Shown here: in pieces, positions 36,958 to 40,222 of the stretch
Numbering within the stretch: position 1 is the first letter of the stretch
Layout: every line of letters begins with the position of its first letter
NCBI RefSeq assembly: GCF_036702645.1
Contig: NZ_JAUBUO010000016.1
Location: forward strand, 28,186 to 92,185
Origin: Microcoleus sp. Aus8_D1
GTDB lineage: Bacteria; Cyanobacteriota; Cyanobacteriia; Cyanobacteriales; Microcoleaceae
Reading direction: 5' to 3'
Length of the DNA stretch: 64,000 nucleotides
The notes under the pieces: model-generated
Seen by the model: only the letters and a program-made list of their open reading frames with translations
Databases searched by the model: none
Told to the model about the DNA's origin: nothing
Position numbers and translations under genes: made by a program

Positions 36958-37159
36958 CTTTAGGCAAACAATAAAACTTGTTTGCAGTCACGACTTGAGC
37001 AACCGCAGGGTGCGGATATCTCAAAAATTATGCTGTATAAAATCGACAATCTCTATAGATCCGCACCTGTGCATCCAGGTTAAGTCAACAACCCTCCGTT
37101 TCACTCCACCGAACAATTATGTTGTAACAAGACTTTTATAAATGAGACTTCTTGCAAAA

Positions 37160-37230
37160 ATAGTTAGGAACGGGCAAGATGCCCGTTCCACAAAAATATT
37201 TTTTTCTGTGGAATGGGCATCTTGCCCGTT
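37160..37230. promoter_or_regulatory. Two inverted copies of a 23-nt perfect hairpin (GGAACGGGCA-AGA-TGCCCGTTCC) separated by an AT palindrome; bidirectional terminator-like structure between convergent genes
   Basis: Read directly; first copy followed by ACAAAAATATTTTTTT on + strand, second followed by a T-run on the - strand. Confidence 0.45.
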
Positions 37231-37333
37231 CCAAAATTCGATCTAAAAGACTTTTGCAAGAGATCTATGGTATGATTCCCAGACACCGATACAGAGGACT
37301 GAAGTCCTCACTACAAAATTTAGCAGGGCGATA

Positions 37334-38731
37334 TTACCATTTATTTTTAATGGCTTTCACCTGTTCGATAAATTCTGCACCTTTCTCGGGATTTACCATT
37401 GCTACAAAGTTAGCAAAACCTTGAATCGATGCTAAAACATCAGTCGAATTCCCCCACCGCTTCCCCTCAGGCCCGTCTTTCTGGATTTGAAATAAAGCTG
37501 CGCGGAAGCGTTTTAACACTTTCTTGGAAATACTCAGTTGCTCGTTGACCACTATTCCCGTAACTTCTTGTTGCCGATTTTTTCGCAATATCCGAGTCTT
37601 TTGTTCGTTAATGCTAAATCCTTCATGAATAACGATCGCCTCCGTGCGCCTGAGTACGTTACAAATGTTTTGCAAGCTGTCTCCCGATGCCGAAAATGTC
37701 AAATCGTCAGCGTAGCGGGTGTAAACAAATCCCAATTCCTGAGCCATTTGAGTTAAGCGCTTGTCGAGGCGGCGGCACAGCAAATTAGTAATCGCTGGAC
37801 TTGCGGGAGAACCTTGGGGCAAATGGCGTTCTGTAACTGCGACAAAGTAAGTTTTGCCGTCTAATTCCAATTCTTCAACCTCCGGTTCCGTACACAACAA
37901 TCCGAAGATTGTGGCGCCAGCTTCGGAATATCCAAAAGATTGAAAAAGCCCCTTAACTCGCCTGTACGAAATTGAGGGAAAAAAGTCTTTTAGGTCGAAG
38001 TTGATAATAACTTCCGAACCTACATGAGGTTGAGCGTTGGTGACAATTGAATGATGCGATCGAAAACCCTGTGCCGCGCCGTGCAATTCGAGTTTTTCGA
38101 GAATGTTGGCAAGTATCCAGTGCTGTGCTTTTTTGAGGCGGGGCATCGGTGCGGAAATGAGTCTTTCTCCGCCAGTTTTCTTGGGTATTTTAAACCGGAT
38201 GTAGTGGGAAATATGGGAAGTTTTGCGGGAAAAAGCGAGAAACCGCAATTGTCCGATGCTGATGTCCATCGCCGCTGCTATTTCTGCTGCTGTATTGCCA
38301 AGCGGTAACTGATAGCTTTGCAAGCGTTCTACATTGCCGTTTGTGCGATCGAGTCCCGCAGATACACCGTCACCGAGATAGCTAATTTCTTGCTGTTTTT
38401 TTTGCCGCCAATTCTCAGCGCGTTCTTGCCGTTCTCTTTCCCGGCGTTCCTTAGTTTCCTGCCGTTTGCGCCGGGATTCGGCAAGCCGCTGTTGCAGCAT
38501 TTCCTTGCGGAGTGCTTTCTCGTTTTGCAGCCGCGAACTTTCCCTGCGCAGTTCGCCTAGTTCTCGCTGAATTTCCCCGATGCGGCGAATTTCGTCGGCC
38601 GGATCTTGGGGAATTTCGCCTTGTGCGGGCCAGAAACCGAGGCGGATCATTTCTTCGAGAATGAATTCTTGTTTGCTGCTAGAACGGATGCGATCGTACA
38701 ATTCCTGGCGAGTGCGCGGCTGGTCAGTCAT
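37334..38731 (-). CDS. Retron-type reverse transcriptase (with ~150-aa N-terminal coiled-coil extension, or alternatively start at Met155 = coordinate 38269)
   Basis: RT motifs 1 (IPKKTGGERLISAP), 2 (INFDLKDFFPSI), 4 (LPQGSPASPAITN), 5 (YTRYADDLTF) plus retron hallmarks NAxxH (SIVTNAQPH, just before motif 2) and VTG (QQEVTGIVVNEQ, after motif 5/6). Confidence 0.8.
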   Translation of the reverse strand: MTDQPRTRQELYDRIRSSSKQEFILEEMIRLGFWPAQGEIPQDPADEIRRIGEIQRELGELRRESSRLQNEKALRKEMLQQRLAESRRKRQETKERRERERQERAENWRQKKQQEISYLGDGVSAGLDRTNGNVERLQSYQLPLGNTAAEIAAAMDISIGQLRFLAFSRKTSHISHYIRFKIPKKTGGERLISAPMPRLKKAQHWILANILEKLELHGAAQGFRSHHSIVTNAQPHVGSEVIINFDLKDFFPSISYRRVKGLFQSFGYSEAGATIFGLLCTEPEVEELELDGKTYFVAVTERHLPQGSPASPAITNLLCRRLDKRLTQMAQELGFVYTRYADDLTFSASGDSLQNICNVLRRTEAIVIHEGFSINEQKTRILRKNRQQEVTGIVVNEQLSISKKVLKRFRAALFQIQKDGPEGKRWGNSTDVLASIQGFANFVAMVNPEKGAEFIEQVKAIKNKW

Positions 38732-38855
38732 ATCGATTTTGGATTTTGGATTTTGGATTTTAGATTTTGAATTGTAAAGGAAAAAGGAATCTTCAGGTTA
38801 TGTTTGTGCAATTAAGAACGTCCTAACCGTTTTGGCAGTTGCCCTATTTTCCAGT

Positions 38856-39629
38856 TTAGATCAGACCGCGTTTTTTGAGCCTAGCTAGTGCATCTTCGGC
38901 TGCATTTTTTTCCGCATCTTTTTTGCTTTTGCCTTTACCTTCTCCATAGAGTTTCTCTGCAACATACACTTTAGCGAGAAATTCCGGTGCGTGGGGCGGC
39001 GTTCCTTGTACCTGAACAGTCCCGTATTTGGGCGGAGTCGTTTCGCCGTTGGTCTGTACCCATTCCTGAAAGCGGTTTTTCGAGTCTACAGTCGATCGAG
39101 TTTCCACAACATTTTCGGGAACCGAGTCAAACAGTTTCCACACAAAACCGCGAACTTTGTCCATATCTTGCGTATCGAGATAGTAAGCACCAATGAACGC
39201 TTCAAAAGTGCTACTGAGCAAATTTGGATTGGTAATCCCACCTTCTCGATAAGCTCCTTTTCCGAGTCGCATTTTTAAGTCCAAATCTATTTCAGTAGCA
39301 AATCTGGCTAATTGTTTTTCATCTACCAATGCAGAACGCCGCCGAGTAAGTTGGTCTTCTCCCATTTCAGGATGGCGCTGGTAGAGATATTCACCGCTGA
39401 GAAAAGTCAGCAAAGCATCGCCGAGAAATTCTAAGCGTTCGTTGTCTTCTTCGCGCAATGTGGGGTTTTCATTGACGTACGAACGGTGGGTGAGCGCTTG
39501 GCGCAGCAGTTTGTCATTGTTGAATTCGGGAAGGGTCATTTGTATCTCTTTTGTTGGATTAGTTAATTGCATGAAAACTTGGTAATTGTTACTGCTTTTG
39601 GAGTTTAGTGTAATGATGTTGACGGACAT
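38856..39629 (-). CDS. rnc: Ribonuclease III (probable true start at internal Met, ~39539)
   Basis: ERLEFLGDALL signature, RNase III catalytic domain plus C-terminal dsRBD (KSKKDAEKNAAEDALARL). Confidence 0.85.
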   Translation of the reverse strand: MSVNIITLNSKSSNNYQVFMQLTNPTKEIQMTLPEFNNDKLLRQALTHRSYVNENPTLREEDNERLEFLGDALLTFLSGEYLYQRHPEMGEDQLTRRRSALVDEKQLARFATEIDLDLKMRLGKGAYREGGITNPNLLSSTFEAFIGAYYLDTQDMDKVRGFVWKLFDSVPENVVETRSTVDSKNRFQEWVQTNGETTPPKYGTVQVQGTPPHAPEFLAKVYVAEKLYGEGKGKSKKDAEKNAAEDALARLKKRGLI

Positions 39630-39721
39630 GAAAGGGCCGCAGACAGCGGTTGGTTTGGAGAATCTAGTTTATCAAATAAACTGGATTTTTGCTATCTGCG
39701 GCGAGGTAAATCTACACAAAT

Positions 39722-40222
39722 TTAGGCGGTCTGTTTGCAAGTCTGTATCGACTTCGGCAATTCATCGATCAAGTAAAATCGATCGGCAAGCTTTTTGAGA
39801 TTGTGACTATCATTACCTTTGCGGGCAACAATTATTACCTCCTTCCCCTTGTCTTGCAGCTCGTGAATCAAAATTTCACCGTAGCCGTCTCCAGACACAA
39901 TAATAAATGTGTGTGGGTATGAACTCCTTGAAGCCTCGCTACAGCAGTTCATTGACAAATAAAAGTCTACAGCATTTTTAATGTTTAGGGATACATCAAA
40001 ACATTCAAAATTTAGATAATTCAAAGTTTCTTGTGTGGTCTTATTTCTCTGTTTCCAATTGTCGTAAACTTTTTGATTGACTACATATCCTAGTTCACTA
40101 GCAAAGAGTAATAAATCTTTGGCTCGTTTGTAATCAGGGATGTTCTGATAATCCCAATAAATAGAAACTAAAGGCTGAGACTGACTTTTTTGTTTGCCTG
40201 TGGTTCGATGATTGTCTGTCAT
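39722..40222 (-). CDS. NYN-domain (LabA/PIN-like) putative ribonuclease
   Basis: VSIYWDYQNIP ... FIIVSGDGY ... EVIIVA pattern of NYN domains. Confidence 0.65.
   Translation of the reverse strand: MTDNHRTTGKQKSQSQPLVSIYWDYQNIPDYKRAKDLLLFASELGYVVNQKVYDNWKQRNKTTQETLNYLNFECFDVSLNIKNAVDFYLSMNCCSEASRSSYPHTFIIVSGDGYGEILIHELQDKGKEVIIVARKGNDSHNLKKLADRFYLIDELPKSIQTCKQTA

Follow-up and report, generated by a model that had tools for sequence, protein, structure and literature searches.

A probably complete type XIII retron with separated genes in the chromosome of Microcoleus sp. Aus8_D1

The 64-kb stretch of DNA analysed here (contig NZ_JAUBUO010000016.1 of Microcoleus sp. Aus8_D1, positions 28,186 to 92,185; hereinafter the window) encodes a retron-type reverse transcriptase (RT) directly behind the genes for a NYN-domain protein and RNase III (rnc). 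The question raised by this locus is whether the RT is the core of a novel retron in which the ribonucleases are effectors, as suggested in the preliminary description of the sequence, or belongs to a known retron with its other components located farther away. The evidence presented below makes it likely that the window carries all parts of a type XIII retron, of the Mx162/Mx65 family, that resides in the Microcoleus chromosome and the genes of which have drifted apart, with NYN-rnc a pre-existing housekeeping module between them. On the minus strand, to which all coordinates refer unless stated otherwise, the order is: WGR/HEAT-ARM gene, SWIM gene, noncoding RNA (ncRNA), an insert of ~1.7 kb, a long hairpin, NYN, rnc, and RT.

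The RT gene (37334..38731) is an intact open reading frame (ORF) encoding 465 aa. The top match among the PADLOC profile hidden Markov models (HMMs) is RT_XIII (E 6.5e-199, 660 bits, aa 2-464), and the runner-up, RT_other, scores 307 bits, below half of that value; Pfam RVT_1 covers aa 182-394. The group II intron model TIGR04416 (58 bits, cut-off 300) and the Drt2 model (42 bits, cut-off 390) both stay far below their thresholds, and an Rfam scan of 35000..49000 detects neither an intron RNA family nor a diversity-generating retroelement (DGR) family. The ORF length and the two signatures on which the preliminary description had relied, SIVTNAQPH (residue 228, with NAQPH at 232-236) and EVTGIVVN (residue 389, with VTG at 390-392), are as it gave them; YADD is at residue 340, and NAxxH, YADD and VTG are all invariant in an alignment of 18 RT sequences from different cyanobacterial species. 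The nearest protein of solved structure is the RT of the retron Ec86 (E 3e-45, aa 133-417), whereas residues 1-132 have no match in the same PDB search. A search of 5.8 billion proteins identifies full-length homologues with 72-100% identity in Microcoleus, Tychonema, Kamptonema, Coleofasciculus, Nostocales, Xenococcaceae and other taxa. In a survey in which one genome per species was scanned, yielding 80 cyanobacterial RT loci (loci are designated by L numbers), the identity is 72-94% over the full length. By its profile matches, then, the RT is, as first described, of the retron type, and of an already classified family, type XIII, rather than a group II, DGR or unknown-group (UG) enzyme; to judge from its conservation, it is under purifying selection over its whole length.

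Type XIII retrons were defined by Mestre et al. 2020 (PMC7736814) as RT clade 10, which includes Mx162, Mx65, Sa163 and Ne144 and in which the RT co-evolves with its partners. These partners are a protein combining a SWIM Zn-finger, a winged helix and a DEDE motif (cluster 114) and a WGR protein with HEAT/ARM repeats (cluster 216). Both canonical partners are encoded in the window, upstream of the RT gene and on the same strand. The 547-aa SWIM_XIII protein (42464..44107; PADLOC SWIM_XIII, E 2.4e-247) is encoded within an ORF that spans 42464..44155, with the true start at the ATG at 44107 (MEFNYSYKG), as in the 547-aa homologues. It contains a winged-helix region, a DEDE-like motif of the kind described for the SWIM protein of type XIII retrons (PMC7736814), matched here by the pattern D-x7-D-x4-E-x32-D, and a C-terminal CxCx12CxH SWIM finger (Pfam SWIM, aa 506-538; CTCNWHQQNKLYKGPCEH). 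The second partner (44370..47594, 1074 aa) matches PADLOC WGR_XIII (E 0, 1253 bits) and HEAT-ARM_XIII, and Pfam detects WGR at aa 8-80 and HEAT_2 at aa 116-186. The SWIM protein is conserved as well as the RT (76-92% identity among homologues), and the WGR homologues are 48-85% identical. A structure search identifies no solved structure for either the SWIM_XIII or the WGR_XIII protein.

The missing ncRNA was located through the relatives, in which WGR-SWIM-ncRNA-RT is the most frequent arrangement and SWIM and RT are separated by 270-430 bp. These spacers hold a common element of ~250 nt that starts a few bases past the SWIM stop codon, and its counterpart in the window is found at 42205..42470(-). 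A profile made from the ncRNA alignment detects exactly one copy in the window (42210..42468), and an nhmmer search recovers the family (265 nt) in 45 loci, every time on the RT strand. The predicted msr-msd RNA proper occupies ~42218..42460 and begins 4 nt past the SWIM stop codon. RNAalifold applied to an alignment of 39 sequences predicts a msr hairpin (42401..42419 in the window) followed by a long msd hairpin (42265..42377). Compensatory changes are observed in 25 of the 48 consensus pairs; 95.7% of the alignment cells are paired in the consensus structure compared to 33-47% in slid controls, and double changes number 197 compared to 26-50. The ends of the ncRNA are too variable to align, but the composite 5' and 3' flanks form an a1/a2 duplex in all 39 sequences (-17 to -36 kcal/mol) although the sequences themselves differ. 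In the window, a1 (42448..42457) and a2 (42221..42230) form the duplex AAATCGCGCG/CGCGCGATTT together with TTGGT/ACCAG, and an inner stem is closed by pairing of 42437..42441 with 42237..42241; the fold of the window RNA has an energy of -115 kcal/mol (z -5.5). The a1/a2 inverted repeats for which the preliminary description recommended a search thus exist, far from the place proposed there. Other conserved features are a 3' block, TTTACGAAGGGGCAACC (42239..42255), a T-run 3' of a2 in all copies and, where the closing stem ends (42437..42439), a GG that contains the candidate priming G. Mestre et al. (PMC7736814) identify msr-msd transcripts by pairing terminal inverted repeats and hairpins of the kind seen at 42218..42460. 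The Rfam scan of 35000..49000, run in E-value mode, detects no retron RNA family and only spurious matches to microRNA-type hairpins. The SWIM gene contains near its 3' end, ~100 nt before a1, a sigma-70-like promoter motif, TTGACA-17-TATAAT (42570..42598), that agrees with the consensus in 12 of 12 positions, and almost every SWIM-linked ncRNA copy has TTGAC[AG]-17-TAT[AG]AT at this distance; this is a candidate promoter for the ncRNA.

The general rule that the msr-msd is contiguous with the RT gene does not hold in the window: between the end of the ncRNA (~42218) and the RT start (38731) there are 3.5 kb with five ORFs, and a T-run. The ncRNA and the two partner genes lie 3.5-9 kb upstream of the RT gene. 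Separation of this kind is seen in many cyanobacteria. Among the 68 informative loci with enough upstream sequence, the ncRNA is directly upstream of the RT gene in 18 (three of these with a second copy after SWIM), lies 0.5-5 kb away in 27, and is absent within at least 8 kb of the RT gene in 23. By comparison, it is located within 150 nt of the SWIM stop codon in 34 of 39 loci. In Cyanosarcina radialis, SWIM and the ncRNA are found alone, with neither WGR nor RT within 6 kb and the RT gene on another contig (L073); in other species, unrelated genes precede the RT gene. Because the ncRNA adjoins the RT gene in only 18 of 68 loci, yet follows the SWIM stop codon in 34 of 39, the cyanobacterial retron is regarded as dispersed, and it probably acts in trans. 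The genes that flank the system, encoding a polysaccharide deacetylase, a DUF1824 protein and GlgA, retain their synteny in Microcoleus, Tychonema and Dapis, a context that argues against a mobile defence island. As far as comparative genomics can tell, the cyanobacterial system behaves as a dispersed, vertically inherited gene set in which SWIM-ncRNA is the tightest unit. Some species possess two ncRNA copies (L035, L040, L042, L049, L050, L061 and L076); in L040, L042 and L076, the two copies are placed differently, one after SWIM and one directly before RT, as if the RNA gene had been duplicated when the locus split.

Should the system operate like other retrons, the ncRNA would be made as a short transcript of its own, by read-through from the SWIM gene or from the promoter in its 3' end, and would terminate at the T-run past a2. 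It would fold through a1/a2 pairing, with a single short hairpin for the msr and a single long one for the msd; this step is backed by covariation. The RT would be translated from a NYN-rnc-RT transcript and, by analogy with the family, would find the ncRNA in trans, prime on the 2'-OH of the conserved G with which the closing stem ends, and copy the msd into multicopy single-stranded DNA (msDNA) of ~140-160 nt; such a product is expected to map to ~42240..42380, with its 5' end complementary to GGTTGCCCCTTCGTAAA. As is the case for other type XIII retrons, the partners of the RT-msDNA complex would be the SWIM and WGR/HEAT-ARM proteins. The RT gene would simply have come to lie behind NYN-rnc, which may lend it a promoter and which the retron would not require.

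The NYN and rnc genes have properties of their own that bear on this scheme. The order NYN-rnc-RT on one strand, noted at the outset, is borne out by the ORF map. The RNase III gene (38856..39629) matches the equivalog model TIGR02191 (224 bits, cut-off 166), with an alternative start, MQLTN at 39569, that gives a protein of 237 aa as in most homologues; upstream of it is the gene for the 166-aa NYN-domain protein (39722..40222; PF01936, E 1.7e-18). Orthologues of rnc with 70-78% identity are present throughout the phylum (e.g., in Nostoc, Coleofasciculus and Leptolyngbya). The NYN-rnc pair occurs with no RT gene nearby in Argonema antarcticum, where the type XIII RT (L030) is on another contig of the same assembly, and in Coleofasciculus FACHB-1120, and rnc alone is found in a Nostoc. 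An effector role of NYN or RNase III is unlikely given that the module occurs without RT, and these proteins are not needed as effectors because the canonical SWIM and WGR/HEAT-ARM proteins are present. Most likely, NYN-rnc is a housekeeping module that is situated between the ncRNA and the RT gene and is not an effector.

Upstream of NYN there is a long hairpin with perfect 32-nt arms (40366..40501), flagged also by the Rfam scan, that is conserved in the relatives with NYN. L081 (128-nt arms) and L082, two loci that lack RT, likewise have long inverted repeats before NYN, and the hairpin is therefore assigned to the NYN-rnc module; for the same reason, it was rejected as a candidate msd. By analogy, it could plausibly be an autoregulatory target of RNase III: as in the rnc operon leader of Escherichia coli, a stem-loop lies upstream of an RNase III operon. 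Unlike the E. coli leader, the stem is far longer (32-128-nt arms) and precedes NYN, and cleavage by RNase III is inferred. Such inverted repeats before NYN-rnc (L081:4653-4993, L082:3787-3918, L008:5270-5523 and L012:7801-7984) look like a conserved double-stranded RNA leader. The 92-nt NYN-rnc spacer (39630..39721) shows 85-94% identity among Microcoleus, Tychonema and relatives, including loci without a NYN match, and contains a 12-bp stem (39636-39647/39691-39702), which suggests a conserved rnc leader element.

Several considerations weigh against the interpretation of the locus as a split retron to which NYN-rnc is incidental. Canonical retrons co-transcribe the msr-msd with the RT. All the mechanistic steps past RNA folding are extrapolated from other retrons, and the likeness of the ncRNA to the msr-msd of Mx162 is drawn from described features. 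The promoter-like motif overlaps conserved SWIM codons, and its conservation is inseparable from that of the codons. Above all, rnc is directly upstream of the RT gene, on the same strand, in ~21 of the 80 species, often with a spacer of only 37 nt (L001, L004-L008, L012). The rnc-adjacent loci are found at several places in the RT tree, and the slot before RT is occupied by members of two RNase III clades and by HEPN_Swt1-RNase III fusions. Such recurrence is more than would be expected of a purely accidental neighbour.

These last observations are the basis of the alternative that fares best, in which the NYN-rnc-RT operon is functional and RNase III, perhaps with NYN or HEPN proteins, processes or partners the retron transcript. 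RNase III might, for example, cut the a1/a2 duplex of ~20-30 bp, releasing or maturing the ncRNA or msDNA, with the adjacency maintained by selection. The length of the a1/a2 stem suffices for an RNase III substrate, the rnc-RT spacer contains no terminator-like site, such that co-transcription of rnc and RT is possible, and in close Microcoleus relatives the place of NYN-rnc is taken by a HEPN_Swt1-RNase III fusion, either alone or together with a second RNase III (the latter in Microcoleus ARI1-B5). However, the adjacency is lacking in most species, 18 of which have the ncRNA directly before RT and others unrelated genes; the hairpin-NYN-rnc module stands alone where the RT gene lies elsewhere; and rnc is a widely conserved housekeeping orthologue. 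Furthermore, the rnc-adjacent cases are confined to families of the Oscillatoriales type, a distribution compatible with a single ancient rearrangement that was then inherited vertically, and the chimeric rnc of L001 suggests recombination between paralogues, not selection for linkage. The adjacency is accordingly read here as one old rearrangement in Oscillatoriales-type lineages, reshuffled via recombination of rnc paralogues, and a retron coupled to the ribonucleases appears unlikely.

The proteins in this slot are diverse. In some Microcoleaceae and in Dapis, the region upstream of the type XIII RT encodes fusions of ~400 aa that combine a Swt1-like HEPN domain, RNase III and a double-stranded RNA-binding domain and are usually followed by a plain RNase III (L009:7952-9883, L049:7121-9072, L060:3291-5236, L001:8322-9536); the L001 protein is a chimera of the HEPN-RNase III fusion with the C-terminus of a window-type rnc product. 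In Floridaenema, Argonema and Aerosakkonema (L030, L031, L035, L051-L053, L057, L065; ~9030-9970), the position taken by rnc in Microcoleus is held by a gene for a conserved 302-aa protein with no Pfam match.

A broader proposal combines both themes. The system might be a domesticated, phylum-wide dispersed retron, with the template RNA as a satellite of SWIM, the RT acting in trans and, in Oscillatoriales, wiring into RNase III operons with maturation at the a1/a2 duplex. This is a speculative extension that we consider doubtful. If it were true, the retron would be coupled to RNA processing instead of forming a defence-island cassette, through operons of either the NYN-rnc or the HEPN_Swt1-RNase III kind. 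In any case, the recurrent RNase III neighbour provides a concrete, cheap hypothesis on ncRNA processing.

Another alternative is that the RT is an orphan, left over after detachment from the ncRNA, SWIM and WGR, with which it would have ceased to function, and that it either has acquired another role or is decaying. The distance of 3.5 kb in the window and the 23 of 68 species without an ncRNA within 8 kb of RT would be in line with this. Against it, the RT, SWIM and WGR genes are intact, identity to homologues across the phylum is 70-94% for RT and SWIM and 48-85% for WGR, the catalytic motifs of the RT are invariant, all four components are present in the window, and type XIII RTs co-evolve with their partners (Mestre et al. 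2020, PMC7736814). An orphan RT is therefore very improbable.

The preliminary description regarded the N-terminus of the RT as ambiguous. It correctly placed Met155 at coordinate 38269 and suggested that translation might start there, leaving 38270..38731 for the msr-msd. Comparison of the homologues yields a different picture: a conserved helical extension (residues 1-115), a linker (~116-148) and the RT domain (~150-465). The RT_XIII profile aligns from residue 2, all 80 species-level tblastn matches begin at residues 1-5, and the first 130 residues include 51 that are invariant in the 18-sequence alignment. Few parts of the protein are conserved as well as its first 120 residues (e.g., QPRTRQELY, FILEEMIRxGFWP, DPADEIRR). 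Compared to seven close relatives, the first 154 codons show an excess of third-position substitutions and no indels or frameshifts. In a low-confidence AlphaFold2 model made with the 18-sequence alignment (mean pLDDT 58.5, used for N-terminal secondary structure alone), the RT domain is predicted to be preceded by two short helices, a helix of ~70 residues (44-115) and a disordered linker. The RT of Mx162 (485 aa) likewise possesses an N-terminal extension. Because of the profile match, the conserved N-terminus and the codon-position bias, 38270..38731 is taken to be coding and not msr-msd, and neither this region nor the rnc-RT gap contains the predicted ncRNA. A start at Met155, with 38270..38731 as the msr-msd of a novel retron and NYN or RNase III as effector, has in its favour the in-frame Met that would give a 311-aa RT and the charged, low-complexity appearance of residues 45-115, but it is hardly tenable given these data, the presence of the single-copy ncRNA elsewhere in the window and the occurrence of just one weak 12-nt inverted repeat, the sole one, within 38528..38722, and can be considered already refuted by homology.

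The repeats around the RT gene are real, with none of 100 shuffles matching the listed features, but those flanking it do not appear to be parts of the retron. In the rnc-RT spacer, the reported CAAAATC array exists (GATTTTG/CAAAATC, 38735..38773), with 5.6 copies instead of four in a gap of 124 rather than 125 nt; it was rejected as a retron part given that the spacer is 37 nt in relatives, and is, by this comparison, a lineage-specific expansion. Between the convergent RT and polysaccharide-deacetylase genes, there is a compound palindrome of ~120 nt (37145..37266; fold z = -9.9). Of the two 23-nt palindromes described there as perfect, 37167..37189 is indeed perfect and 37210..37232 has one mismatch; the reported direct repeats GACTTCTTGCAA / GACTTTTGCAAG are present as the outer arms of the one compound palindrome. 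This element is absent from the closest relatives (L001-L003, L007-L009), in which the first 52 nt past the RT stop codon alone are conserved, and for this reason the palindromes downstream of RT were rejected as retron parts. The element is, as the alignments indicate, a strain-specific insertion, and the terminator-like hairpin inside it makes a bidirectional terminator possible. The hairpin GAGGACTGAAGTCCTC that had been noted downstream of the RT gene is found at 37294..37309. It is also the core of a 35-nt unit present in four tandem copies between the WGR and SWIM genes (44124..44267), and recurs near 52400 (52394..52420).

The variable ~1.7-kb insert that separates the ncRNA from the NYN module (40511..42217) contains a gene for a small membrane protein of 114 aa with a weak match to Ycf66_N (41757..42101), which in some relatives is located between WGR and SWIM (L001:4645-4968, L004:5291-5614 and L009:6722-7057 are its occurrences in relatives), i.e., it changes position relative to the ncRNA. 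Two conserved small ORFs are on the plus strand (40816..41160 and 41237..41497), the first bracketed by 24-nt inverted repeats (40787..41172) that are 83% complementary and 338 nt apart. A dispersed hairpin repeat of ~65 nt, AGAAACCGGGTTTTT ... AAAAACCCGGTTTCT, is represented by five full copies in the window, compared to 0.03 expected matches; three are between the ncRNA and NYN (40639..40704, 41509..41573, 42124..42187) and the others at 878-942 and 2461-2526.

Retrons are defined, and sought by PADLOC and DefenseFinder, as contiguous ncRNA-RT-effector cassettes. Surveys based on gene neighbourhoods would under-call or mis-describe a split retron in which the ncRNA follows SWIM and the RT gene is kilobases or contigs away. 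The Mx162 family (type XIII) is the oldest known retron family, and to our knowledge no function has been established for type XIII retrons. A literature search found no description of a dispersed or trans-acting cyanobacterial retron, no dedicated study of cyanobacterial type XIII retrons or of Mx162 function, and no demonstration of msDNA for any cyanobacterial type XIII member. The single-copy, syntenic genes, with 70-94% identity across cyanobacteria, point to a cellular role that could be addressed in tractable model organisms.

Compared to the characterized systems, the locus is a known one, a type XIII retron, in an unusual split arrangement. Ec86 (structures 7V9U, 7XJG and 8QBK; an RT of the type II-A/III family) shares with the Microcoleus RT a homologous core with the same NAxxH and VTG motifs. 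It differs in that its RT lacks the N-terminal extension, its short ncRNA is contiguous with the RT gene, its effectors are of the NDT type, and it is a mobile defence-island element. The resemblance to the type XIII retrons (PMC7736814) is much more extensive and includes the RT with an N-terminal extension, the SWIM/winged-helix/DEDE protein, the WGR protein with HEAT/ARM repeats, the ncRNA of ~240 nt (a1 to a2) that is bounded by inverted repeats and contains a short hairpin in the msr and a long one in the msd, and the vertical-looking inheritance. Unlike the type XIII retrons described so far (PMC7736814), the ncRNA of Microcoleus is attached to the SWIM gene and not to the RT gene, the RT gene lies 3.5 kb downstream, behind NYN and rnc, and in many cyanobacteria the RT gene, and sometimes all the components, are unlinked.

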